The notes below the pieces were generated by a model, which made no database searches, was not told where the DNA came from, and worked only from the letters and a program-made list of their open reading frames with translations. The position numbers were made by a program, and so were the translations under genes. This document shows, piece after piece, positions 1,164 to 40,811 of a stretch of 64,000 nt of DNA; the stretch's first letter is position 1, and the number at the start of each line of letters is the position of its first letter. The DNA comes from Candidatus Hydrogenedentota bacterium. Its GTDB lineage: Bacteria; Hydrogenedentota; Hydrogenedentia; Hydrogenedentales; SLHB01. Location: assembly GCA_963668025.2 (NCBI GenBank), contig CAXXTH010000010.1:1360456-1424455 (forward strand), read 5' to 3'.

Positions 1164-1787
1164 TCAGGATTTGTCTCCGTTCCCATCCGGATCGGTGTTT
1201 TGTGAAAACGTATGAATCTGGGAGAAGACGCCTGTGTGTTCTTTGCTAGAGTTTGCGGCGTTTATACATGACCGAGTATATCCCTGTAAAAAGCATTGTC
1301 CAGGGTAGCAAGTGTCGCACTTCCACTCGAGATCTGCCTGGTATCGTACCTGTTCGGGGCACTCCATAAGGTCGGCCATGGCCTCATATCTGTAGCACTT
1401 ACCCGCCGGGATGGTCATCTGATCCGTCACGGTCCACGTGTGAGTGTCCAAATCTGAGTTTTGGTTGTTCACCTTAGTCTTGGCCTCGTCATCAGCCACA
1501 ACCTTGGCTGGTTTGCCCGCGCTCACTGTTTCTTTGATCGTCCAGATGGCTTCATTACAGGTGTGATTATGCTTCTCGAAGACTTTAATCACGACATTCT
1601 CTTGGACAATTGGAGGATCTCCGACATACCCGGAATCGTATGGCTGCGCCACGACACGGTAGCCTGCGTGACCCACGTGATCGGTACATGAATCGGCATA
1701 GGAGAGTAACATTATTAAAATAAACATACAGAATCCGAGTGCGGCCATTTTGCCCGGTATTATCCTAATGTTTTCGTGATGTTTCAT
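1164..1787 (-). CDS. Cys-rich secreted hypothetical protein
   Basis: Purine-rich RBS before MKHH at 1787; hydrophobic N-terminal segment; 8 Cys in the predicted mature part; no family recognised. Confidence 0.65.
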   Translation of the reverse strand: MKHHENIRIIPGKMAALGFCMFILIMLLSYADSCTDHVGHAGYRVVAQPYDSGYVGDPPIVQENVVIKVFEKHNHTCNEAIWTIKETVSAGKPAKVVADDEAKTKVNNQNSDLDTHTWTVTDQMTIPAGKCYRYEAMADLMECPEQVRYQADLEWKCDTCYPGQCFLQGYTRSCINAANSSKEHTGVFSQIHTFSQNTDPDGNGDKS

Positions 1788-2011
1788 TCTACTCTCCCTT
1801 TCTGCCTTATTCCCTGTCCTTTTCCTGTGGCAGTCTTCCGGATGAAACATATTGCGGCCGCTTTTTTTATCACACGAACTTACAATCTCCAACTGACCAA
1901 CAGGCCGGTGGTCATCCTCGTTGGCAACGAGCGCAACCCCACCACAGACACTAATAGAGGAATACTGCCCTTGTCAAGTGGAAAGACATCGACAGGTATA
2001 TAGGTATAGGC

Positions 2012-4571: not shown

Positions 4572-4892
4572 TTATGAATGATTAAGTGTCATATTCGCTT
4601 CTTGCAGCACTTCATAGTACTTTTCAATAATCGCCTGGAATTCCTTTGCCAGCTTGTCCCAGTCCAGCACGTCCACCATGAACGGCAGATTGGACTCCGC
4701 AAACGCGTCCTTCAGTTCCTCTATGCGCCGCCAATCCACCGGCTCCGGCGTGACGAGCGCCAGATCCAAGTCGCTGTAAGGCCGCGCATTGCCCCGTACC
4801 CGCGAACCGAAGGCCCTCACCTCCGCTTCGGGGATGTGCGACGCGAGGAGCCGCTTCACTTCCGCTAGTTCTTCACTAGATAAGTCAATCAT
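4572..4892 (-). CDS. Minimal nucleotidyltransferase (MntA-like antitoxin), copy 1
   Basis: FGSRVRG...SDLDL motif, about 106 aa, start overlaps the end of the upstream HEPN gene. Confidence 0.9.
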   Translation of the reverse strand: MIDLSSEELAEVKRLLASHIPEAEVRAFGSRVRGNARPYSDLDLALVTPEPVDWRRIEELKDAFAESNLPFMVDVLDWDKLAKEFQAIIEKYYEVLQEANMTLNHS

Positions 4893-5304
4893 TCCGTTTT
4901 TCAAGTTCCGCTAGAAGCGCTTGTGCATGAGGCAAAAACTGCTTTGCGTGCTCTAGCGCCACTTCCGCTTGCGCTTCGTCATATGTGTGGGACGTTAAGC
5001 TTCGTGCGTCGCCAAAAGCAAACCATGGCTCGGGATTGGCGATAAGGCCTTGCCTGGCCGACATACGGAACAACTCCTTGCGCGTCCGGGGAAACTCGGC
5101 TTCCGCCAGCGAACCATTCTCGCGCAGCCACCGCTGCATGAACTTCCAGCACTGCTCGTACGCGATCTCGAAGTGCTGGATGATGCCTGCTCGAATCGCT
5201 TCCCGCGCGTCAGCCTCATAGGAGTCACCACGCGTATCCAGTACGTGCAATGAACGATCCAGCGCTTCGATGGTTTTCCGCAAGCTTGTCAGTTCCAGCC
5301 GCAT
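4885..5304 (-). CDS. HEPN-family nucleotidyltransferase substrate-binding protein (HI0074-like), copy 1
   Basis: IQHFEIAYEQCWK and DARSLTSHTY (R-x4-H-x-Y) motifs; adjacent to MNT. Confidence 0.88.
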   Translation of the reverse strand: MRLELTSLRKTIEALDRSLHVLDTRGDSYEADAREAIRAGIIQHFEIAYEQCWKFMQRWLRENGSLAEAEFPRTRKELFRMSARQGLIANPEPWFAFGDARSLTSHTYDEAQAEVALEHAKQFLPHAQALLAELEKRND

Positions 5305-7085: not shown

Positions 7086-8393
7086 TTATGACATACGATT
7101 TCTATAAAAAGGCTTCGGTGCGGGATTGCCTTCTTTTAACCGATAGAGCACTTCTCCCGCGTGTGGCACGAGGAGAAGCCCTTCCTCTTCCTTGTCTTTC
7201 CAGTCATCGGGATGGATGGATGCCGGAGCACGATACCCCAGGTTAATGGCGCGGCATTCCTCTTCGGGTATTCCCGTGGCCAGCGTGACCTGAATCCGGC
7301 ATTTTTCCACGCCGTTTTCCATAGTCCCGATGCCGCGCACGTGGGTCGAATGGGCCAGGATGCCGCCGGGTATGTCGCGAAATCTATCGAGTTGGGACAA
7401 GAAATAGTCGCGGGTATGATAACCGATGCGCTTGATCAGTTTGCCATGAGTCACGCTGATTTCACGAATATGCGGCGCACAAATAATCAGTTCGCCGCCA
7501 TCGGCCACCACGGGCTCGAGCTTGTACATGCATTTGCCCGCCACCCAGATCTCGTCATACATGGCGGGGGCCATGGCGAGCACGCTGGTGTAGGGGCGGT
7601 CTTTGTAGACGACATGCGTCTGTGCCGATAGGTCCGCTGCGGCGTCCCAGGCGTCTTCCGGCGTGCCGTAAAAAATGCCTTTGCAATCCTTGCCCATCAC
7701 ATTCAGGCAAAAGCAGCGTTTCTCGATGGGAATCATGGAGGCGGCTAGGTTGATGACTTCCCGCACGGGCGTGTACTTTGTGCCATTGATGACGGGATTC
7801 GAGATCAGCGCGCCCAACCAGTGAAATAGGTTCAGTATTTCCTCGCCCGCGATGCCGGGGAAAAAATACTTGTTGCCGCCGCTGAAGCCTACGACCTCGT
7901 GGGGAAACACGGGCCCTACAATGCACAGCAAATCGTAATCAAAGATCCGCTTGTTGATCAGCACATCGGCGCGCTGCCGCAGCAATCCGCCGCTGATGTG
8001 TTCGATCTCTTCCTCAGTGACCGTTCCGATATGCCGCAGCATATCCGCATTCTGCCAATCATGATTAAAAATGCCGACATCCGCGTATTTGGTTGCGCGC
8101 TCTTCGGACGATATGCCCACGAGGTGGTTGATGGCCTCATCCGTCATGGGCGGATGTGTGCCCAAGGCCACGAGGCAATCCATTTTCGCCACGCGCCCAT
8201 GGACCGCATCAAACAGCGCTCGAAACATAGCCGCCATGGGCATGCTGCGCGTGCTGTCGGGAATGATGAAGAGGACGCGCTTGCCATTGATGGATTCGTT
8301 TCCCAGCGTTTCTTGCACGAAAGCATGCAAGCCGGACTCTGATAGGAAGCCTTGCGATGCGATCAGTTGCTTAGTTGAGGATGTGGTTTGCAT
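7086..8393 (-). CDS. LarA-family (DUF2088) nickel-pincer hydroxyacid racemase/epimerase, probable mannonate/gluconate epimerase
   Basis: PDSTR, LGTH, PHEVVGFSGGNK, FH motifs; GGAGGAG RBS favours a start at 8393/8396 over 8414; specificity inferred from context. Confidence 0.85.
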   Translation of the reverse strand: MQTTSSTKQLIASQGFLSESGLHAFVQETLGNESINGKRVLFIIPDSTRSMPMAAMFRALFDAVHGRVAKMDCLVALGTHPPMTDEAINHLVGISSEERATKYADVGIFNHDWQNADMLRHIGTVTEEEIEHISGGLLRQRADVLINKRIFDYDLLCIVGPVFPHEVVGFSGGNKYFFPGIAGEEILNLFHWLGALISNPVINGTKYTPVREVINLAASMIPIEKRCFCLNVMGKDCKGIFYGTPEDAWDAAADLSAQTHVVYKDRPYTSVLAMAPAMYDEIWVAGKCMYKLEPVVADGGELIICAPHIREISVTHGKLIKRIGYHTRDYFLSQLDRFRDIPGGILAHSTHVRGIGTMENGVEKCRIQVTLATGIPEEECRAINLGYRAPASIHPDDWKDKEEEGLLLVPHAGEVLYRLKEGNPAPKPFYRNRMS

Positions 8394-8432
8394 CAACTCG
8401 GGTATCTCCTCCATGTGAAAGGCTCGGAATAC

Positions 8433-8578
8433 TCACCACTAAGTCACAAAGACACAAGGAGTTGTGAGAGTTCATTCATCTGCCTCACTCTTTATTTGTG
8501 CAATAATGGTTAAATATTCATATACATACATGATGAAGTCCTTGAGAACCTCTTTGTGTCTTCGTGTCTTGGTGGTGA
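8433..8578. repeat. Pair of ~27-bp imperfect inverted repeats around an AT-rich spacer
   Basis: tcaccactaagtcacaaagacacaagg (8433-8459) versus the reverse complement of 8552-8578, tcaccaccaagacacgaagacacaaag. Confidence 0.75.
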
Positions 8579-8579
8579 A

Positions 8580-9746
8580 TTATCCGGATACTTCCGCAGA
8601 TCTATCGGCAATGCTATATCCCAATCCCGCCAGCGCCCTCTCGATCTCGCTATTCGCAGGCTCCACGAGCGCGCGCGTATTAAAAAACTCGCAGCGCTGG
8701 GGATATTCTTTCCGCAAGCGATCAAAGTATGCGCCGCGCTGTTCCTCGGGCTGCCCAATAATGCCGCGCATGGCCGCATCGTCTTCCACTATATCATAAA
8801 CCGGTTTTACTGCTTGCCGCAGGGCGTCCATAAAGGGAAGTGAACCATCCACGCGCACTTCGGGGCACGCTGGCGCGGGGAGCAAAGGCGCGGGATTCCA
8901 AGTGGGGGGGAGGCCCAGGAATTGGCAGGCGGCCTCGTAAATCTGCCGCGTGCCGTTCACCTTGCCATCGAAGGAGTAGCCCGCGATGTGGGGCGTGCCG
9001 ATGAACACGCGCTTGAGCAGAGCGGCGTTTATACTCGGTTCGCCTTCCCATACATCGAGCACGCAGGCCCGCAAGTGGCCATCATCCAGGGCGTGTATAA
9101 TCGCTTTGCCGTCCGCCACGGGGCCGCGTGAACTGTTCATGAGAATCGCGCCTGGCTTCATTGCTTGAATAAACGATTCGTCCGCCAAATGATAGGTCGC
9201 GTCCGGCCCTTCTTTCTGAATAGGCACATGGAGCGTGACGATATCGCATCCCAGGATCTCTTCAATAGGCCGGTATTTGGTATTGCCAGTCTGGCGCTCG
9301 AGCGGCGGATCGTTGAGGACGCACTTCATGCCTAGCGCAGTGGCCATGGCCAGCACCCGTTTTCCCACATTGCCCACGCCTACGATGCCCAGCGTCATGC
9401 CGTGCAAATCGAATCCGAATCGTTCGCTCAGCGCCAGCAAGGCGCACGCGATATATTGGCCTACGCTGTTCGCGTTGCAGCCCGGCGCGCTCGAGAAAGC
9501 GATGCCGTGTTGTGCGAGATACGCCTTGTCGATGTGGTCTTCTCCAATGGTGGCCGTGGCCACGAAACGGACCTTGGAGCCATCCAAGAGCGCCGCGTTC
9601 ACCTTGGTGATCGAGCGGACCAGCAGTAGTTCCGCGTCGTGGACGGTCTCTGCGGCCATCTTGCGGCCGTGCGCCGTACACACTTCGCCCAGTGGCGCAA
9701 ACGCCTCCCGGACATAGGGGATGTTTTCATCGGCGATAATCAGCAT
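8580..9746 (-). CDS. pdxB: 4-phosphoerythronate dehydrogenase (PdxB-like)
   Basis: ADENIP, LLVRSITKV, ATIGEDHID, APGCNANSV, GVGNVG, PHIAGYS, FDRLRKEYP; AAGGAG RBS before Met at 9746. Confidence 0.92.
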   Translation of the reverse strand: MLIIADENIPYVREAFAPLGEVCTAHGRKMAAETVHDAELLLVRSITKVNAALLDGSKVRFVATATIGEDHIDKAYLAQHGIAFSSAPGCNANSVGQYIACALLALSERFGFDLHGMTLGIVGVGNVGKRVLAMATALGMKCVLNDPPLERQTGNTKYRPIEEILGCDIVTLHVPIQKEGPDATYHLADESFIQAMKPGAILMNSSRGPVADGKAIIHALDDGHLRACVLDVWEGEPSINAALLKRVFIGTPHIAGYSFDGKVNGTRQIYEAACQFLGLPPTWNPAPLLPAPACPEVRVDGSLPFMDALRQAVKPVYDIVEDDAAMRGIIGQPEEQRGAYFDRLRKEYPQRCEFFNTRALVEPANSEIERALAGLGYSIADRSAEVSG

Positions 9747-9763
9747 GGTAGCTCCTTTTTTGG

Positions 9764-9948
9764 ACCACGAATGGACACGAATTTGCACGAATAAAGAAGT
9801 GCATTTCTGGTGCATTAATCAAACTTACAGACAAAATGCTTATGTGTATATAATTATATTTATAGTACATTATTAAATTATTTACTGATGTATTTTCATT
9901 GATTCATATATGTAAAATAATCGTGATCATTGGTGTTTATTCCTGGTT
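9764..9948. repeat. Pair of degenerate inverted repeats built of cacgaat-type units around a very AT-rich spacer
   Basis: accacgaatggacacgaatttgcacga (from 9764) versus the reverse complement of 9921-9948, aaccaggaataaacaccaatgatcacga. Confidence 0.6.
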
Positions 9949-10985
9949 CCTCTCGTTTCTTCATCAATGATTGCTTTCGTGAGCGAGATAGCGTCCAGCG
10001 CATATGGGCTGTCGCTGGTCTCCTGGCACAAGATGATTTCATCAACGCCTTGCCGCACGGCAAGGGCGACATCATTGAGTTCAGCCCGGTTGGGCGTTCC
10101 GGTGGACGCATAGTGTTCGAGGAATTGCGTGGCCACGGCCACGGGCTTGCCTGCTAATTGGGCAAGTTTTACGATCTCCTCCTGAATGCGCGGCAGCCGG
10201 TGGGGCGGCACGAATATGCCCAAGTCGCCGCGCCCCAGCAGAACGCCATCCGCTTCGGCGATGATGGCGCGCGCGTTTTCCACGGCGTAAGCGGTTTCGA
10301 TTTTAGCGATGATGCGCGGTGTCTCCTCCGGCCATATAGCGGTGATGTCGCGGCGCGCTTCGGCTATCTGCGCGGCGGATACGGCCAGAGATAGCAGGAT
10401 GCCGCTGGGTTTTATGCGTGCGGCGGCGAAACAGGCGAGGAGCTTTTGGTCGTCCTTGCGAAGCAATTCAAAATGGACGCCGCTATCGGGGAAGCTGCAC
10501 CCGTTGTTTTCTTGAAGCGCTGAAGAGGCGGTATGGCATCTTGCCGATATCGTATTCGCCGTGTGGGAAATCACACTGAAGATATTACGCCCATCACGGA
10601 ACATCAGCCGATGTCCGGGCTCGAGCATGGAAGCCCATTGCGGCAAGCCAGGCAGTGGAATTTCACCCTCTATTTGGGTGGTTTCCGCATCCACAAGCTG
10701 GACGATTTCGCCAGGATGGAACCGGCGGGCAAGCATGCGGCCAATGCGCGGGCGCGTGGCGGGCAGATCAAGATATAGCCCGCATTTGGTTTCAAGCCCA
10801 GCAGAGGCTAGTATTTCTTGCTTGGCCAGAATAATATTTCGAGCGTCCATCAGATGATCGCGGCCGGACAGCCCTAAGGCCATGCGGAATCCGTTTGCAC
10901 CGCACGCCATGGCTTCCCTGAGTTTTTGTAAGGAATCCATGGTTCGTCCGGCGCTGGCGATGATCCGGGGGCGCTGTTGTATCAA
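9927..10985 (-). CDS. Divergent pyruvate-kinase-fold protein lacking the C-terminal allosteric domain
   Basis: IIAKIET, GRGDLG, VATQFL, PNRAELNDV, LCQET motifs; 352 aa; TTG start with AAGGAG RBS inside the end of the upstream small ORF. Confidence 0.82.
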   Translation of the reverse strand: MIQQRPRIIASAGRTMDSLQKLREAMACGANGFRMALGLSGRDHLMDARNIILAKQEILASAGLETKCGLYLDLPATRPRIGRMLARRFHPGEIVQLVDAETTQIEGEIPLPGLPQWASMLEPGHRLMFRDGRNIFSVISHTANTISARCHTASSALQENNGCSFPDSGVHFELLRKDDQKLLACFAAARIKPSGILLSLAVSAAQIAEARRDITAIWPEETPRIIAKIETAYAVENARAIIAEADGVLLGRGDLGIFVPPHRLPRIQEEIVKLAQLAGKPVAVATQFLEHYASTGTPNRAELNDVALAVRQGVDEIILCQETSDSPYALDAISLTKAIIDEETRGTRNKHQ

Positions 10986-10990
10986 GGTTT

Positions 10991-11131
10991 TTACGACTCC
11001 TTCGCCAACTGCGGGAAGAGCGTCACCACAAAATCATATACCGGTTCTTCGAAGGTTTCGCACCACCAGGTGGGCGCGCAGCCGCATGGCATGGGGCATA
11101 ACTGGCTGGTGGCGGCTTTTATGTGCTTCAT
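10991..11131 (-). CDS. Unannotated 46-aa peptide MKHIKAATSQLCPMPCGCAPTWWCETFEEPVYDFVVTLFPQLAKES
   Basis: Hand-translated, below the ORF track cutoff; GAGGAG RBS 7 nt before ATG; fills the gap and stops 5 nt before the PK-like start. Confidence 0.65.
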   Translation of the reverse strand: MKHIKAATSQLCPMPCGCAPTWWCETFEEPVYDFVVTLFPQLAKES

Positions 11132-11150
11132 GGCCTGTCTCCTCAGTTGT

Positions 11151-11193
11151 AATAGGGGAGAAGCCATCCCACATCGAGTGTTTCTCCCCTATT
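11151..11193. promoter_or_regulatory. Stem-loop with a perfect 12-bp stem upstream of the peptide gene
   Basis: aataggggagaa (11151-11162) and ttctcccctatt (11182-11193); no long U-tract. Confidence 0.5.
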
Positions 11194-11213: not shown

Positions 11214-12113
11214 TTAATGGCCGTTCTTTTTCCACGGCGGCAGCTCGGGCAGATACGTGTCGAATTCGCGGATCAATTCCGCTTCATATTCGCCCGCGAA
11301 TGTGCCCGCGAAGAACCGGTCGAGGCCTTCTTCATACAGACGTTTCCACGACTTGTCTTCATCGCCCGGAAGGATGGGGAAGAAGAGTGCGCCATTGCCC
11401 CGCGCTGCTTTCATATCGCCCGGCGCGTCGCCAATCATGAGCATGTTCATTTTTTCGTAGCGCCCTTCCGAGGCGTAGCCGATATGCTGCGTCTTTGTGC
11501 CCATTTCCTGCCCCGCGATGGCGAAGACATACTCGGCGAGGCCTTGCTCTTCCCATTCGCGCACGAGGGCCTCCGTGGGCGTCTGTGAACAAACCAGCAT
11601 GTCCGCCTTATCTTGAGCTTTTTGCAGGCATTCACGCACATAAGGGAACGGCGGAAGGCCTTTGTCCACGATATCCGCCACCGATACATTCACGGCTTTG
11701 CTCCAGCGCAAGGTTTGGTGCATGACCGGATCATCGTGTTCTTTGCAATATGCCTCGAGGGCGGGATTGCCCAGTTTGGATTCCTTTTCGACCCATGCCC
11801 GCAGCGAGGGCACATCAGGGGCCTTAATGCCGCGCTCTTGCACTTTGTCCCAATCGTTCAGCAGGTCGAAGGTCATCAGGATCGCTGGAAAGCGGTTGCA
11901 GCCGCGCCATTTCGAGTAGAGGTTCACGAACTCCGCCGCCGCGCGCGCATATTTCGACACGGTTTGGAGCTCCCAATGCTTGATGATGTTCGGGATGAAA
12001 CATTCCTTGTGCTTGATCTCCATCGTATCGAAGGCGCAGCCGTCCGAATCAATGGCGATTAAGAATTGGTGTTTGGGCTGGTGGTTCTTCAGAACTGCTA
12101 CGGGGTCGCTCAT
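11214..12113 (-). CDS. HAD-superfamily hydrolase
   Basis: Motif I IDSDG, motif II SQT, motif IV GDAPGD. Confidence 0.9.
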   Translation of the reverse strand: MSDPVAVLKNHQPKHQFLIAIDSDGCAFDTMEIKHKECFIPNIIKHWELQTVSKYARAAAEFVNLYSKWRGCNRFPAILMTFDLLNDWDKVQERGIKAPDVPSLRAWVEKESKLGNPALEAYCKEHDDPVMHQTLRWSKAVNVSVADIVDKGLPPFPYVRECLQKAQDKADMLVCSQTPTEALVREWEEQGLAEYVFAIAGQEMGTKTQHIGYASEGRYEKMNMLMIGDAPGDMKAARGNGALFFPILPGDEDKSWKRLYEEGLDRFFAGTFAGEYEAELIREFDTYLPELPPWKKNGH

Positions 12114-12162
12114 GATAGTTTCTTCCCTTTCTTTTTTTGATGAAATTAAGAATGCGCTTCTG

Positions 12163-12567
12163 TCATAACTGTTTATACATTTCTAACAGCCAGTCCCTCA
12201 TGACGGGGGTATAGGATGAAATGCGTTTCGCGAGTTCTTCAGCGAGCAATTCATTATAAGTATGCACGGCAAGATTCCGATCATCCGCCATCTGCATAGC
12301 CAGATCTTGTGAAGAGCGGTTAATAAGGCCATTTTGCAGGCATGCCCTCACGATTTCTTTGGGAGAGGCGAATGCTTGCCCATACGCTTGGCGCAATACG
12401 GTTTGCGCTGCTTTCCAAATTGCTTCGAACGTAAAGATAAACCGAAGAATGGCGGCATCCCGGGAACGATTATCGTCATCGTTGGGGATAGGCTCAAGAG
12501 GCAGAGCCCTTTCGAGCGCCTCTAAAGCTGTTTTTGCGGTATCTAGCCGCTTCACCATTATTTCCAT
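12163..12567 (-). CDS. HEPN-family nucleotidyltransferase substrate-binding protein (HepT/HI0074-like), copy 2
   Basis: RDAAILRFIFTFEAIWK and DDRNLAVHTY. Confidence 0.9.
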   Translation of the reverse strand: MEIMVKRLDTAKTALEALERALPLEPIPNDDDNRSRDAAILRFIFTFEAIWKAAQTVLRQAYGQAFASPKEIVRACLQNGLINRSSQDLAMQMADDRNLAVHTYNELLAEELAKRISSYTPVMRDWLLEMYKQL

Positions 12568-12848
12568 CGAATGCCTTCCTTGATGACGGCGTCGCGAAAA
12601 TCCGCACTCGTGCTCGAAAGGTCTATCACATCCGCGAAATACGGGATGTCGCTTTCTTCTAATGCGGAGCGGATGGCTGGCATCACGCTCATAGGCATAG
12701 GGCCCTTCGGCAGCACCGCGATATCAATATCGCTTGCGCGATCATCTTCTCCCCGGGCCGACGAGCCGAACAGATACGCCTCGGCGTCATGGCCTTCCAG
12801 CGCCGATAGCACCAGGGCCTTGGCCTTTTCGATATACTTGGAATCCAT
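12558..12848 (-). CDS. Minimal nucleotidyltransferase (MntA-like antitoxin), copy 2
   Basis: LFGSSARG...SDIDI motif; 96 aa from MDSKY; overlaps the HEPN start. Confidence 0.9.
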   Translation of the reverse strand: MDSKYIEKAKALVLSALEGHDAEAYLFGSSARGEDDRASDIDIAVLPKGPMPMSVMPAIRSALEESDIPYFADVIDLSSTSADFRDAVIKEGIRWK

Positions 12849-12856
12849 GGCGCGAA

Positions 12857-13687
12857 TTATACGCCCGAAAACGCGCTGAATCCGCCGTCGATGGGCACCA
12901 CGATGCCCGTGACGAATCGCGAGGCGTCTGACGCCAGCCAAATGGCTACGCCGATCAAGTCTTCCGGTTTCCCGAATTCAGCCATGGGCGTATGGGCGAT
13001 GATGGTTTTTCCTCGCGGCGTCAGCTCTCCGGTCTTCTCATCGGTCAGCAAGAACCGGTTTTGATCCGTCAGGAAGAACCCCGGCGCGATGGCGTTCACC
13101 CGCAGCTTGGTGCTGTATTCCTGCGCCAAGTGTACGGCGAGCCATTGAGTGAAGTTGCTGACGGCTGCTTTCGCCGCACTGTACCCCGGTATGCGTGTCA
13201 GCGGGCGCAGGGCGTTCATGGATGATATATTAATGATGCTCCCGCCTTCGGCCTGGTTTTTCATGCGGCGGCCAAAAACTTGGGAAGGCACGATAACGCC
13301 TCCGGTCAAGTTGAGATCGATGACTTTCTGAATCGCTTCGGCGGGGAGATCAAAGAAAGACTGCTCCGGAGAGGTCGTCACGCCCTTCATGTTGCCGCCC
13401 ACGCAATTGAACAGGCTGTCTACTTTGCCGAAATCGTGGTAAATGGACTCGCAGCAAGCTTCAATGGACGTTTTTTCAAAGACATTCATCCCATAGGCGG
13501 CGGCTTTGCCCCCATCCGCCGTAATGGCGGCAGCCTTCGCCTTGGCGTTGTCAAGGGCTACATCAGCGATAGCCACGCTTGCGCCTGCGTGTGCAAGGCC
13601 GCGAGCGATGGCGCCGCCGAGTACGCCGCCGCCGCCAGTGACGACGACTACCTTGCCAGTTAGATCAAAACATGAAGTATTTGCCAT
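12857..13687 (-). CDS. uxuB: SDR oxidoreductase, D-mannonate oxidoreductase / fructuronate reductase-like
   Basis: TGGGGVLG, SSMNALRPLTRIPGYSAAKAAVSNFTQWLAVH, APGFFLTDQNR, IDGGFSAFSGV, typical of SDR-type UxuB. Confidence 0.85.
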   Translation of the reverse strand: MANTSCFDLTGKVVVVTGGGGVLGGAIARGLAHAGASVAIADVALDNAKAKAAAITADGGKAAAYGMNVFEKTSIEACCESIYHDFGKVDSLFNCVGGNMKGVTTSPEQSFFDLPAEAIQKVIDLNLTGGVIVPSQVFGRRMKNQAEGGSIINISSMNALRPLTRIPGYSAAKAAVSNFTQWLAVHLAQEYSTKLRVNAIAPGFFLTDQNRFLLTDEKTGELTPRGKTIIAHTPMAEFGKPEDLIGVAIWLASDASRFVTGIVVPIDGGFSAFSGV

Positions 13688-19604: not shown

Positions 19605-22600
19605 ATGGCTCATAAAATATGGATGCTTCTCGCTTGCTCATGCCTGGTTGTGTTACCGGCCTTTGCCAAGGATGAGGCGATGCCAGCGTATCAGGAGTGT
19701 GCGGCGATGGCGAGTTGGGACGTTCTATATGATTTTGCCAATCACTGTAAAGAGGCCGATGCGCGTGAGACGGAGATATTCATCAATGCCTATAAATCCG
19801 CACAGGGAATCGAACGTCCAGGCTTTCTACTCCATCCGTATACGGCGCAGAAAGATACGCTGGCTTCGCTGAAGTTTCCTCCTGTTGCCCTTTCGGGATT
19901 CGCCGAAGGCGAACGTCCTATCTTGCATTTCTATATCACGATTGCCGATGGTTTTGATCCCGCGCAAACGCCAACGTTTGATGGGTGCGGGTTCATCATC
20001 CACATTAATGGCGAAGAAGTATTTCATCAAATCCATGCCCAGCAGGAATGGTTGGAGTTTACCGTAGATTTGGAGCCTTGGCGCGGCCAGGAAGTGCAAA
20101 TAACGTTTCAGGCCGACGCATTGGAGAACTCCAACTATGATTGGGCCTTCTGGGGTGCGCCTCAAATTTTGATTCAAGGCCGCCAACGGCCGCCCCGCCA
20201 GGGGCCAAAATCCTCCATGTTGAGTTATGAGCGTCTGGCTTCTGAAATTCAACCGGAACGTATCGTGAAGCATTATCAAGATGATCGTACGCAAACGATC
20301 ATTGCGGTCATGGACAAAGACCTGGATTTGCCAGCGTTATTATGGGCGGCGCGTGATGAAACGAAGCCAGAAGTGCCGCTTGCGCCGCGAATGGTGGCCG
20401 GCGAAGGAGCTGATCCGGAAAACCACACCATCGTCCGGGTGCTCAATGAATATGGCATCGCCGATGTGCAGTTCCTGGCCTATCCCGTGGAGATTAAGGG
20501 CGGTGTCCAAGTGTGCGCCCTCCGCGCGCAAGGAGAAGATAGGATAGTGGCGGCTCCCTTGGCGGATGAATCGATGCGTGAAATCCGGGTCTTCAATGTC
20601 TGGGGCGGTTTGGTGAACGCCTTCACTCCCTCCGATTTCGTTCGAACGCCGATGTCGCTGGCCACGGCCAGGCTAGAACATGGCGGTGCGGCTCAGGTCA
20701 TAGCCGTTGCATCCAGGAACGTTCTGAACCAACGGGTAAAATTGTTCTGTTATACAGCCGATGGCGCAATCAAACGAGAATATACGTTATCCGAAATGAC
20801 AGGTCCGCTCGAATTGACGGCGATGGCGCACGAGGAGACGCACATCGGGATTTATGACATCGGGGCGGGCGTCTTCATCGAATGGGATCTGGCCACAGGG
20901 CAGGAGATTAAACGAGTGCCGATCCTGGACGCCACACCGGAGACGCGCGTCTATCCTTCGGCGTTTGGGGATGAGCTTTGGGCCACCTATCCCGAGAAAG
21001 TTTTTTCTACCATCAAACGGTATCGAAATGGCCAGGCGGAGACAGTGAACGTTGGGGAACGTGAAAATACATTCTGGTTTCAATGGCCGGAAGCGATATC
21101 GCTGGATGCGAGCTCGGAGGCGCAAGCGCCGAGATACATCCAATATTCAACATACCGCCACATACGCACGGAATATTTCTCTGATTTCCTGAAGAATCCG
21201 ACATTCAACACCACACCCGCCGATTGGCTGGCGGATGAAACACTCAATAAACATGCCAGGGAATTGGCGCAGAGTTATAACGAGCCGCTGCCCGCTGTTT
21301 GGGATATCTGTTTTTCCCATCGCACGCACAAAGAAGCCTTTACGAAGTGGCTAGACCAGAAAGAACCAGAAACTGGGGTTCTCCAATACTCGATGTTGAC
21401 CCGAGAGAATAACCCGGAGGAATATGTCGAATTCGAGCAGTTCTTTTTTGCACTGACTACGTATGCTTTTGGGCTGCCGGAACTCGACCGCCTTTATGTG
21501 ATGCCGCTTCGCCGCACGCTGCAACGCCTAGCGGCAGCCTATCGAGACAACCCGGAACACATGGCCGCGCTGGAACCTAATCATGAGCATGAAATCGCGG
21601 TGCAAGGCGATGGCTCGAAAGGGGATTACAACCTCTGGATGATTCGAGGCTTTTACCATTACCTGGCGGCGCTGTATGGCAATGATCCGGCGTGGCTGGC
21701 TGCGAAATTCGGCTTTGAAAAGGGTCAATACTTTGATGCGCCGAGGGGGTGGGGGCGTGGTGAATGGGATGCGTATGATTCGTCCAATCCATTCCTCCGG
21801 GAGTGGGAATTCTATAATCGGTATGTTGTAAACCGTCGGATTGCCCAAACCTTTCGCGAGGCGTTACTGGCGGGCTTTCCGCCCGAACTGATCCGCTCCC
21901 ATCAGATCCCCGATCGATATGCGCTGGGCGGGCTGGAGGCCTTCAGCTCGGTGCAATCGCGCTATACCCCGATCGATTACACCATCAGCGCCGGTGTCGG
22001 GTATGGCTTCACACGCTATGGGGTCTTTTATACCAATCCCAACAATTGCATTATGGGGGCCTATTCGTCGGGATTCGATAACATCACGCTTGGCGAATAT
22101 AACGCCTTGACGCCCGATCCCCAAGTTGCCTACGAGCAATTGCGTTATATATTTGATCATGGCGGAGCGACAGTCGACTGCATCCAGTGGCCCGGCTCTC
22201 ACGATGAAGGCTTCAATGCCGCGATGATTACGGCGTTGCGGCGGTTAATGGAAGAAGACCCGCCGCGCTCAGTGGCGGCAGGCGGCACGGGGCCGATGCG
22301 TGCGTTTATCGATGGCGGGCGGGCCTTCAACATTGTTCAGATCGGTGCGGGAGGCGAGCACACCGGCCTGCTCAAGTCGATTACATCCGATGGCGATTGG
22401 GAGGGCACGGTCTATGTCACTCCGTTCCACGCCCATGTGGATATTTCATCGGTTCCTTTTGAAAGGGAAGGTGAAAAGTGGTTATCAGCGCCGATTCAGG
22501 CGCTAGATGCTGCCGGCCAAATCGAGTTGATGGTGGATGTGAATAGCCGCAAGAAAAGCCAGATACAGATACAAGTGCTTCAGGAAAACCAGGTGTTGCC

Positions 22601-22862
22601 TGGTCTTTCAACGACGCTCTTGGTGGATGAAAACGATCAATTCATACGCTATATCTTTCGAGCGCAATTGCCATCGCCTACCGTCCGTTTGATGATAACT
22701 CCTGGAAAAGCGCTTACGCTCGCGCATATCGAAGCGTACCGCCACACGCCTCAACACGTGAAGCTCCATCGCGGAATCCTTGCGGGAAAACGGCATAAAG
22801 GCGGAGTCACTTTTGATTTACTGGAAAATCAACCTGGCGTGGCGGTTGAGGCTCGCCGTTGA
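19605..22862 (+). CDS. Large secreted hypothetical protein, possible clan GH-A-like glycoside hydrolase with accessory beta domains
   Basis: GAGGT RBS, signal peptide (LPAFA), EPNHEHE and TLGEYN segments. Confidence 0.7.
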   Translation: MAHKIWMLLACSCLVVLPAFAKDEAMPAYQECAAMASWDVLYDFANHCKEADARETEIFINAYKSAQGIERPGFLLHPYTAQKDTLASLKFPPVALSGFAEGERPILHFYITIADGFDPAQTPTFDGCGFIIHINGEEVFHQIHAQQEWLEFTVDLEPWRGQEVQITFQADALENSNYDWAFWGAPQILIQGRQRPPRQGPKSSMLSYERLASEIQPERIVKHYQDDRTQTIIAVMDKDLDLPALLWAARDETKPEVPLAPRMVAGEGADPENHTIVRVLNEYGIADVQFLAYPVEIKGGVQVCALRAQGEDRIVAAPLADESMREIRVFNVWGGLVNAFTPSDFVRTPMSLATARLEHGGAAQVIAVASRNVLNQRVKLFCYTADGAIKREYTLSEMTGPLELTAMAHEETHIGIYDIGAGVFIEWDLATGQEIKRVPILDATPETRVYPSAFGDELWATYPEKVFSTIKRYRNGQAETVNVGERENTFWFQWPEAISLDASSEAQAPRYIQYSTYRHIRTEYFSDFLKNPTFNTTPADWLADETLNKHARELAQSYNEPLPAVWDICFSHRTHKEAFTKWLDQKEPETGVLQYSMLTRENNPEEYVEFEQFFFALTTYAFGLPELDRLYVMPLRRTLQRLAAAYRDNPEHMAALEPNHEHEIAVQGDGSKGDYNLWMIRGFYHYLAALYGNDPAWLAAKFGFEKGQYFDAPRGWGRGEWDAYDSSNPFLREWEFYNRYVVNRRIAQTFREALLAGFPPELIRSHQIPDRYALGGLEAFSSVQSRYTPIDYTISAGVGYGFTRYGVFYTNPNNCIMGAYSSGFDNITLGEYNALTPDPQVAYEQLRYIFDHGGATVDCIQWPGSHDEGFNAAMITALRRLMEEDPPRSVAAGGTGPMRAFIDGGRAFNIVQIGAGGEHTGLLKSITSDGDWEGTVYVTPFHAHVDISSVPFEREGEKWLSAPIQALDAAGQIELMVDVNSRKKSQIQIQVLQENQVLPGLSTTLLVDENDQFIRYIFRAQLPSPTVRLMITPGKALTLAHIEAYRHTPQHVKLHRGILAGKRHKGGVTFDLLENQPGVAVEARR

Positions 22863-39365: not shown

Positions 39366-40811
39366 ATGAAGCTTTTTCTCTCGAATACGGTGTCGCTCGA
39401 ACGGTTCAATTGCATTCCCGATCTCGGAGTGGGCTATCTATTATCCATTGCTCGAAACGCCGGGCATGAAGTCCGTTTTCTCGATTGTCTGCGTGAGCAT
39501 ATCACGTATGACCAGTTCGCCGAAGCGGTGCGTGCGTTTCAGCCGCGTGTGGCGGGTGTAAAAGTGTATTCCGGCGATTTAGGCCCCGCACGTGAAATGC
39601 TTGCGCGCATCAAGGCCTTGTCGCCCGATATCTTAACGGTCATCGGCGGGCCGCATCCCAGCACGGAGCTTCCTGAACTCCTTTTCGAGCAGTTTCCTGA
39701 ACTCGATTTCGCTTTCGCGGGGGAGGCTGAACCTGGATTTTCCCGTTTTCTTGAGAAAATCGAGTCCGGCGCCACGGATTTCTCTGATGTGCAAGGCCTT
39801 GTGTGGAAAGACGCTTCAGGCGGCGTGCATGCCAATGAGAAGGCCTTCGTGGCCGAGCTTGACGCGCTTCCTTTCCCCGCATGGGATCTGATGGACCCGC
39901 GTGGTTATCCCTGGGGATACTCGTTCATGACGTATAAATACCCCGCCGCGCCCATGGTACTCACGCGGGGTTGTCCCTTCAATTGCACGTTTTGCGGCTC
40001 CCATCTCATCACGGGCCGCTCCGTGCGCAAGCGCGGCATCGACAACATTATCGAGGAAATCCGCATGCTCCAGCGCGAGTATGGCGTGAAATCCATTGAT
40101 ATCTGCGACGAGAATTTTGTGTATGACAATGCGTACGCCACGGAATTTTGCGAACGCATGATCCGTGAAAACCTGGGCGTCGAGTGGAACTGCCCCTATG
40201 GCGTTCGCCTCGACAAACTCAACGAGAACCTCGTGCGCCTCATGGAACGCGCCGGGTGCTATGGCTTCTCCGTGGGCGTCGAGAGCGGGTCCGACCGCAT
40301 TCTGCACGCCATCAAGAAGTGCTTGAGCGTCGAGGAAGTGCGCGAGCAGATGCGTATGATCAAGCGCGCCAGCCGCATCATGGTGCAGGGGTATTTTATC
40401 ATCGGATTCCCCACGGAGACGAAGGAGGAAATCGAGGCCACCATCGGCCTTGCCTGTTCGTTGCCTTTTGACATCGCCGCTTTCCACCCTTTGCGTGTCA
40501 CGCCTGGCACGGAGATCTATCAAAACCTCGTGGCGGCGGGATTTTTGCAGAAGCGCATGGACTATGGCGGCCTTGGGAATCATTATTTCGTGCGCAGTTA
40601 TTGCCCTGTGTCCGATGAGGAAATGCGCGCCCTCTACCGCAAGGCTTATCTGAGGTTTTATGGCCGTCCGAAGGTCATCTGGAACCTGCTGCGCCACACG
40701 CGCTCGAAGGCCCAATGGCGGACGATTCTTAATGGCGTGGGGCGGCTTCTTGCCAAACCGGTGGCGATGTTCGATCCGCGCAAGAAACGCTCGGCCAGCT
40801 CCGCCAACTAA
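39366..40811 (+). CDS. B12-binding radical SAM protein
   Basis: IGGPHPS, GEAE, RGCPFNCTFC, GVESGS, IIGFPTET. Confidence 0.92.
   Translation: MKLFLSNTVSLERFNCIPDLGVGYLLSIARNAGHEVRFLDCLREHITYDQFAEAVRAFQPRVAGVKVYSGDLGPAREMLARIKALSPDILTVIGGPHPSTELPELLFEQFPELDFAFAGEAEPGFSRFLEKIESGATDFSDVQGLVWKDASGGVHANEKAFVAELDALPFPAWDLMDPRGYPWGYSFMTYKYPAAPMVLTRGCPFNCTFCGSHLITGRSVRKRGIDNIIEEIRMLQREYGVKSIDICDENFVYDNAYATEFCERMIRENLGVEWNCPYGVRLDKLNENLVRLMERAGCYGFSVGVESGSDRILHAIKKCLSVEEVREQMRMIKRASRIMVQGYFIIGFPTETKEEIEATIGLACSLPFDIAAFHPLRVTPGTEIYQNLVAAGFLQKRMDYGGLGNHYFVRSYCPVSDEEMRALYRKAYLRFYGRPKVIWNLLRHTRSKAQWRTILNGVGRLLAKPVAMFDPRKKRSASSAN

Follow-up and report, generated by a model that had tools for sequence, protein, structure and literature searches.

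Candidatus Hydrogenedentota bacterium carries, on contig CAXXTH010000010.1, a 46-codon open reading frame (ORF) that stops a few nucleotides (nt) ahead of a gene for a divergent enzyme of the pyruvate kinase (PK) fold, and the question raised by this locus is what so short an ORF does at such a place. The stretch of DNA analysed, referred to here as the window, is 64,000 nt long, and all coordinates are given in its numbering. A sequence-only reading of the window had taken the ORF for a hidden gene of a Cys- and Trp-rich peptide, likened it to the SCIFF peptides and proposed that it forms, with the PK-like gene, a candidate peptide-enzyme system of the kind seen among peptides that are made on the ribosome and modified after translation (RiPPs). 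Our analysis points to a more modest answer: the ORF is probably a genuine, lineage-restricted small-protein gene, which encodes a putative cytoplasmic mini-protein with four Cys residues (Cys4) and whose translation would be tied to that of the PK-like gene. As judged from related loci, it appears to have been inserted, in one lineage only, into a metabolic operon that is otherwise conserved, and not to be a conserved partner of the PK-fold enzyme. All features of the locus, from a HAD-like gene to a LarA-like gene, lie on the minus strand; the two genes at issue and their signals are as follows, with protein lengths in amino acids (aa).

10991-11131, minus strand: 46-aa small-protein gene, starting MKHIK, with Cys at residues 12, 16, 18 and 24 and WW at 22-23; its product is MKHIKAATSQLCPMPCGCAPTWWCETFEEPVYDFVVTLFPQLAKES (46 aa).
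11139-11144, minus strand: GAGGAG Shine-Dalgarno (SD) site, 7 nt ahead of the ATG of the small ORF.
10991-10993, minus strand: stop codon TAA of the small ORF.
10997-11002, minus strand: AAGGAG site for the PK-like gene, within the last codons of the small ORF and 11 nt ahead of the TTG.
10983-10985, minus strand: start codon TTG of the PK-like gene, 5 nt after the TAA of the small ORF.
9927-10985, minus strand: PK-barrel-only enzyme of 352 aa, read from the TTG start, with PF00224 and with PF02887 absent.

That the small ORF is a genuine gene is, in our estimate, very probable. The strong GAGGAG site claimed for it is indeed present, and SD-like motifs stand upstream of 46.5% of 4073 model genes of the genome and of 10.7% of 2828 intergenic small ORFs. 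Codon use was scored with a model trained on 3090 long ORFs from this genome. The small ORF reaches 0.225 per codon, at the 34th percentile of 46-codon windows from real genes; such windows average 0.275 (standard deviation 0.159), intergenic small ORFs average -0.110 (standard deviation 0.160), and only 0.2% of wrong-frame windows reach 0.225. Its frame is the best of the six (the runner-up scores 0.04), with a GC content at third codon positions (GC3) of 0.76. Among the 2828 intergenic ORFs (40-70 codons), 75 score at least as high, 32 of them with an SD-like site, although this set must itself include real small genes. GC content runs at 54-61% across the small ORF, and the true spacers nearby fall to 21-22% (9800-9949), 35-39% (8450-8599) and 39-41% (12050-12199). 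The gene can hardly be called hidden, since the exact 46-aa protein (P0121) is already listed in public collections (NCBI, Logan and ENA). Furthermore, a wastewater-metagenome contig corresponds to 10588-11070 at 96% identity (19 differences in 483), so that a related strain retains the junction and the 3' half of the small ORF; in the sequencing-run data, X5 and X6 leave the small ORF uncovered.

Protein-level conservation is seen with a single relative. A phmmer search of 1.84 billion protein cluster representatives returned the ORF itself and one 49-aa homologue, P0124 (56% identity, E = 3.3e-8), aligned from Met1 to Met1; by BLASTP, P0121 and P0124 are identical at 24 of 46 positions (52%), with one in-frame gap of 2 residues. 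The 24 invariant columns include M1, K2, H3, K5 and A6 as well as C12 to T26, and common to both members are MKH[IL]KA, CPxPCGCxPTWWCET and P[VI]Y. The Cys pattern, C-x3-C-x-C-x5-C, occupies residues 12, 16, 18 and 24 of the 46-aa peptide, and P0124 has six Cys in its 49 residues. A 58-aa version of the peptide, read from an ATG at 11167, was rejected: that ATG falls in the loop of the hairpin described below, and P0124 aligns from Met13 of this longer form. Also rejected were four giant phmmer matches (E 8e-11 to 2.5e-4, with 5-8 matching stretches each), which we read as tandem GYTFTGWD-type repeats and as chance similarity multiplied by those repeats, because each repeat contributes only some 20-23 bits, the four Cys do not align and P0124 does not match them (E = 1.1 against P0122).

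Beyond this pair, the peptide was sought widely. Within the genome there is no paralogue (best E 0.86), and a six-frame search of 53 other genomes of the family found no peptide (best E 0.012). Run in six frames over 133 order genomes and 135 phylum genomes, a profile of the two sequences matched, besides this genome, only two Arg/Ser/Pro-rich alternate frames; the phylum set gave this genome and one alternate-frame match dismissed as junk, and none of its other 134 genomes yielded a relative of the peptide. A word-index search of 5.8 billion proteins recovered P0121 and P0124 only; a Pfam and NCBIfam scan of both, up to E = 10, assigned them to zero families; the ESM Atlas gave no usable match; and a literature text search for MKHIK brought up, among the papers listed, an author's name only. 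When the core C-x-PTWWCET was back-translated, it matched 3 times in genomes of 185,579 species, 11 times in JGI metagenomes and 0 times in viral contigs, and all 14 matches were discarded as alternate-frame junk lacking the MKH start or the CPxPCGC motif. As far as these searches reach, only two members of the peptide family are known.

The conserved core suggests what the product might be. The invariant CPxPCGCxPTWWCET knuckle would bind a metal ion, a short helix would follow it, and the product would be a cytoplasmic mini-protein. The AlphaFold2 model of the peptide is poor (pLDDT 54.5) and contains only a helix at 30-38. A lipoprotein or signal peptide was rejected by eye, the hydrophobic run ahead of the first Cys being only 4-6 residues long.

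Judged by its layout, the small ORF is physically arranged for translational coupling to the PK-like gene. The junction has the geometry of a coupled pair, with TAA, TTG and an AAGGAG inside the upstream ORF at the positions listed above, and the earlier statement that the last codons of the small ORF supply the ribosome-binding site of a gene starting 5 nt past its stop holds. The public gene call for the enzyme (P0001) begins at a later ATG and gives 337 aa; orthologues, however, align from residues 5-8 of the 352-aa reading, most members of the subfamily have a strand that aligns with residues 10-18, and the TTG is the sole ATG, GTG or TTG codon in the open frame ahead of that strand. The TTG start and its 5-nt spacing are favoured on these two grounds, namely the homologue alignments from residues 5-8 and the lack of any other start ahead of the conserved strand. 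The peptide gene has its own strong ribosome-binding site and ends 5 nt ahead of a weak TTG; in the mechanism that we propose, ribosomes finishing the peptide would re-initiate at the PK-like start, or unmask it, and synthesis of the enzyme would then track translation of the peptide.

Whether the peptide belongs functionally to the enzyme can be judged from the loci in which the enzyme occurs without it, for which the surroundings of the pair are needed.

11214-12113, minus strand: HAD-like hydrolase gene (weak HAD_2 match).
11151-11193, minus strand: perfect hairpin with 12-bp arms (11151-11162 and 11182-11193) and a 19-nt loop.
9747-9926, minus strand: AT-rich spacer of 180 nt between the PK-like gene and PdxB.
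8580-9746, minus strand: PdxB, 4-phosphoerythronate dehydrogenase (NF001309, 450.4 bits against a cut-off of 434).
7086-8414, minus strand: LarA-like gene.

Along the minus strand the order is thus HAD-like gene, a gap of 228 nt, PK-like gene, the 180-nt AT-rich spacer, PdxB and LarA-like gene, and the 228-nt gap contains the hairpin and the peptide gene. Of the order's 133 genomes, 7, this one included, encode a member of the PK-barrel-only subfamily, and in the other six genomes the PK-like gene always lies between the HAD-like gene and PdxB. A check set beforehand, namely whether a similar peptide stands upstream of PK-like homologues, went against the proposed pairing as far as the nearest available homologues go: the peptide is present in 0 of 6 orthologous PK-like loci (44-48% identity; best tblastn E 1.7). 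In five of them the gap from HAD-like to PK-like gene, measured to whichever start codon most closely precedes the conserved first strand, is only 17-21 nt (L002, 21; L003, 20; L004, 19; L005, 21; L065, 17), and in the sixth, L006, an unrelated 250-aa membrane ORF lies between the two genes. PdxB directly follows the PK-like gene in the five complete orthologous loci, the ORFs overlapping by 4 nt in L002 and the alignments abutting in L003-L006.

With matches at E<=1e-50 in 119 of 133 genomes, the HAD-like gene belongs to the core of the order. Among the 11 most similar HAD loci without a PK-like match, 10 have PdxB next, after gaps of 9-1232 nt with assorted unrelated ORFs, and these gaps lead us to regard the HAD|PdxB junction as a landing site for accessory DNA. 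We read the ancestral arrangement as a HAD-PdxB core whose junction is an insertion hot spot: a PK-barrel-only enzyme entered it in 7 of 133 genomes, and in this genome the junction took up the PK-like gene, the peptide gene together with the hairpin, and the AT-rich spacer. A literature search on PdxB, HAD and pyruvate kinase operons returned nothing relevant by title or abstract. The inserts seen at this junction (L002-L006, L065 and L067-L077) include a two-ORF, possibly toxin-antitoxin-like module, a 196-aa ORF, a 170-aa ORF and a 250-aa membrane ORF.

The enzyme is of interest in its own right, and its description as a divergent PK-fold protein was borne out. The 352-aa protein matches PF00224 over residues 5-333 (118.8 bits against a cut-off of 30, E 3.6e-34; profile positions 3-328 of 328), the C-terminal PK domain PF02887 is absent from it and from its relatives P0002-P0021, and against the PK equivalog TIGR01064 it scores 150.3 bits, below the cut-off of 306.4. 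It retains the motifs KIET, GRGDLG, ATQ and RAEL.DVA, and K228, E230, D254 and T286 do not vary among 21 subfamily sequences and line up with KIE, RGDLG and ATQ in solved PKs; we take these four residues to have their catalytic roles. In this enzyme, the R-x-N-x-S and D-T-K-G-P stretches of PKs, which we take to be the sites for the monovalent cation and for the phosphate of phosphoenolpyruvate (PEP), are replaced by R-M-A-L-G and D-L-P-A-T-R-P. We infer that the protein would be an active phosphotransfer enzyme with a different substrate. A second match to the PK-like query in the genome, at 28% identity in a 480-codon open frame, is in our view the ordinary PK. Among PK-like homologues from any source, the closest has 51% identity, with no closer locus, and a pattern search with the PK-like protein in genome contigs gave 99 pattern matches and 0 confirmed. 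The PK-like enzyme thus belongs to a rare, uncharacterised PK-barrel-only subfamily.

Turning to the proposal of a RiPP, the peptide is not a SCIFF and cannot be shown to be a RiPP precursor. Its likeness to SCIFF is confined to the first residues. The SCIFF model TIGR03973 (cut-off 50 bits) leaves both peptides unmatched, and its best six-frame score in the whole genome, 10.3 bits, falls on an unrelated site of contig C9; the SCIFF maturase model TIGR03974 reaches at most 76.3 bits in the genome, on another contig, against a cut-off of 425. The four Cys at 12, 16, 18 and 24 make up an N-terminal cluster and fall short of the six Cys by which SCIFF peptides are recognised. That SCIFF peptides begin MKHIK is presumably right. 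The part of the literature consulted on this point prints no sequence (PMC8326336); as far as that part goes, SCIFFs are widespread among Clostridia and the cross-linked Cys32 and Thr37 lie in the C-terminal half (PMC8326336).

The neighbourhood offers no alternative maturation machinery: genes for radical SAM/SPASM proteins, an RRE, a peptidase or an exporter, named beforehand as worth looking for, did not turn up in a Pfam scan over some 10 kb to each side. The 21 large ORFs scanned between 64 and 26018 belong mostly to sugar-phosphate metabolism, two nucleotidyltransferase/HepT-like pairs and housekeeping; they comprise TPR, 2-hydroxyacid dehydrogenase, 6PGDH, PFK, LarA-like, PdxB, PK-like, HAD and SDR proteins, two MNT/HepT-like pairs, GH63-like, aminotransferase, weak URO-D-like, Macro and GyrA proteins, and two without a family. 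A LanC search matched nothing here and nothing in any of 14 control genomes, and is uninformative. A complex prediction for the PK-like enzyme (21-row alignment) and the peptide (2 rows) scored 0.00 against a mark of 0.32; controls were not run, and the score is evidence neither way. The nearest radical SAM gene in the window lies 28 kb off, at 39366-40811 on the plus strand; its 481-aa product is of the B12-binding type, falls below all NCBIfam cut-offs and best matches BchE, HpnJ and ApyD-like models at about 150-160 bits.

How, then, do the possible explanations compare? Several observations weigh against a coupled gene for a metal-binding mini-protein. The fold at the PK-like start is no stabler than that of shuffled sequences (z = -0.58), so that an occluded start is unsupported; the spacing of the Cys residues is the sole ground for predicting metal binding; the sole homologue, P0124, comes from a single 1096-bp ENA contig, which could still carry a PK-like gene; no RNA sequencing run was found to cover the region; and, by an estimate from base composition, the chance of an open 46-codon frame in a conserved non-coding stretch is about 1 in 5. 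One rival suggestion is that the ORF is no gene at all: an intergenic insert specific to the lineage would happen to contain an open frame, and gene callers would have been misled by it. This would agree with the absence of the peptide from the other 134 phylum genomes, with the failure of all 14 core-pattern matches in public genome and metagenome collections to be the peptide, with the lack of a Pfam or NCBIfam family, with codon use equalled by 75 intergenic small ORFs and with the lack of a covering RNA run. Nevertheless, we consider it quite unlikely: a 49-aa homologue begins at the same start and differs from the peptide by an in-frame indel and by replacements that are conservative, the frame is the best of six with a GC3 of 0.76, GC content shows no dip typical of true spacers, the SD site is strong and well spaced, and a related strain, in the 96%-identical wastewater contig, retains the 3' half of the ORF and the junction.

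The main rival accepts that the ORF is translated and makes it a cis-acting leader, in which stalling at the four Cys and two Trp codons, or by the nascent chain, would govern how many ribosomes arrive at the stop and re-initiate at the TTG, while the peptide, once released, would be without function. Established mechanisms of this kind are leader peptides enriched in the amino acid that they sense and arrest peptides such as TnaC. Here the stop lies 5 nt ahead of a weak TTG, the ORF contains the downstream ribosome-binding site and packs four Cys and two adjacent Trp into 13 codons, and the six orthologous loci seen do without the gene. We nonetheless judge this unlikely, though deserving of serious consideration, on the grounds that residues other than Cys and Trp are conserved too (P13, P15, G17, P20, T21, E25, T26, P30 and Y32), that the conserved residues lie at least 20 residues from the stop whereas known arrest motifs are found near it, that the region has no space for a terminator or antiterminator and is not significantly structured (z = -0.61 and -0.58), and that the downstream genes are not biosynthetic for Cys or Trp. 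A RiPP-type precursor, acting as substrate or partner subunit of the PK-fold enzyme (for example in a PEP-dependent modification) or matured by an enzyme encoded elsewhere, would in turn explain the tight adjacency and coupled translation signals of the two genes and a conserved core rich in Cys, Thr and Trp with Thr-x-x-Cys spacing; the genome, moreover, encodes 41 radical SAM proteins, 7 of them with SPASM domains, and the B12-binding radical SAM gene 28 kb away shows a weak likeness to RiPP enzymes (ApyD model, 153 bits against a cut-off of 750). Set against this are the absence of the peptide from all six orthologous loci, the lack of a SCIFF-model match and of a SCIFF maturase above cut-off, the failure to find a YcaO in the genome, the lack of any RiPP enzyme, RRE, peptidase or exporter among the 21 large ORFs scanned between 64 and 26018, a conserved Cys cluster at residues 12-24 that precludes the usual N-terminal leader, and a distance of about 1 Mb to the nearest SPASM genes on the contig, which together render the proposal very unlikely. 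Of the candidate peptide-enzyme system, the gene itself, as a very probable one, and its coupling geometry stand; the peptide/PK-fold system finds no support in the orthologous loci. A related idea, which would have no described precedent as a pairing of peptide and PK-fold protein, is that of a new kind of Cys/Trp peptide serving the C-domain-less enzyme as a metal- or redox-cofactor-like subunit or as a cross-linked peptide, with a PK-like gene on the P0124 contig as well; we give it only the slenderest chance, and a literature text search for 'pyruvate kinase-like' with 'precursor peptide' found nothing.

The flanks of the two-gene unit had been described as a stem-loop on one side and an inverted-repeat/AT-rich element on the other. 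The 12-bp hairpin is there, starting 20 nt past the HAD-like stop, with arms that are 100% complementary (-22.1 kcal/mol, folding z = -3.06; 2 of 200 shuffles fold equally well). No U-tract follows it, a terminator scan found no minus-strand site at the hairpin, and promoter and terminator scans returned no more sites than shuffles. The AT-rich element is likewise real (21-22% GC at 9800-9949); at the 3' side, the inverted repeat is weak (9926-9935 and 9962-9971; 10 nt, 90%). Nowhere else in the genome is the 228-nt gap repeated (best other match 42 nt, E 0.008), and the sole Rfam match, to snoU61 within the PK-like gene, is below threshold (E 0.46).

Within the AT-rich spacer, just ahead of the PdxB ribosome-binding site, lies a 36-nt motif (9762-9797, minus strand) of three ATTCGTG-like units, TTATTCGTGCAAATTCGTGTCCATTCGTGGTCC, followed by an A-run. 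Four further copies, with 5-7 mismatches, occur elsewhere in the genome, two strong matches standing on opposite strands 300 nt apart, and further weak BLAST matches fall mostly on contig C17; the motif could be a promoter or operator shared between sites, or else a small repeat element. The LarA-family protein at 7086-8414 (minus strand) is best matched by the model 'nickel-dependent putative hexonate epimerase' (181.8 bits against a cut-off of 500) and is probably a nickel-pincer-cofactor enzyme with no assigned specificity; its gene adjoins the PdxB, PFK and 6PGDH genes. Two pairs of nucleotidyltransferase and NTase-substrate-binding/HepT-like genes, at 4572-5304 and 12163-12941 (minus strand), look like MNT/HepT-type toxin-antitoxin systems, and both break up one run of sugar-phosphate metabolism genes. 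A 1085-aa ORF at 19605-22862 (plus strand) and a 242-aa ORF at 1164-1892 (minus strand) have no Pfam family at E<=0.001.

If the reading as a coupled mini-protein gene is right, the locus adds one more lineage-restricted small protein gene, of an unnamed family with two known members, and provides an example of a short ORF settling in an old operon and taking over the translation start of the next gene. The interest of this is modest and lies in small-protein annotation and in the evolution of operon junctions; no new RiPP class is opened by this peptide. The more general unknown here is the PK-barrel-only subfamily, whose altered substrate and cation pocket makes it worth enzymology.

It remains to place the two products among known systems. 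With SCIFF and other ranthipeptide precursors (TIGR03973 with TIGR03974) the peptide shares a length of 46-49 aa and richness in Cys, and presumably the MKH-K start. It differs in matching no TIGR03973 model, in having no radical SAM maturase adjoining its gene and none in the genome above the TIGR03974 cut-off, and in the placement of its four Cys at 12-24, the Cys32/Thr37 of SCIFF lying in the C-terminal half according to the part of the source consulted (PMC8326336). The enzyme resembles pyruvate kinase (PF00224, including short forms such as PRK06739) in its whole A+B barrel and in KIE(T), GRGDLG, ATQ and RAE..DVA, and departs from it in the missing PF02887, a score below the TIGR01064 cut-off and two changed pocket stretches. 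Leaders of the trpL/TnaC type are likewise short ORFs with their own ribosome-binding site, tandem Trp codons, an end few nt before the next start and the downstream ribosome-binding site inside the small ORF; unlike them, this ORF precedes genes that are not amino-acid biosynthetic, has no attenuator structure and is conserved over a Cys/Pro/Gly knuckle instead of a C-terminal arrest motif. Small Cys4 metal-binding proteins, such as zinc knuckles, zinc ribbons and rubredoxin-like knuckles, differ in that the C-x3-C-x-C-x5-C of the peptide fits no family model (E up to 10) and gives no confident structure; the peptide is like them in its four invariant Cys within 13 residues, in Pro and Gly beside the Cys (CPxPCG) and in the aromatic residues that flank the knuckle.

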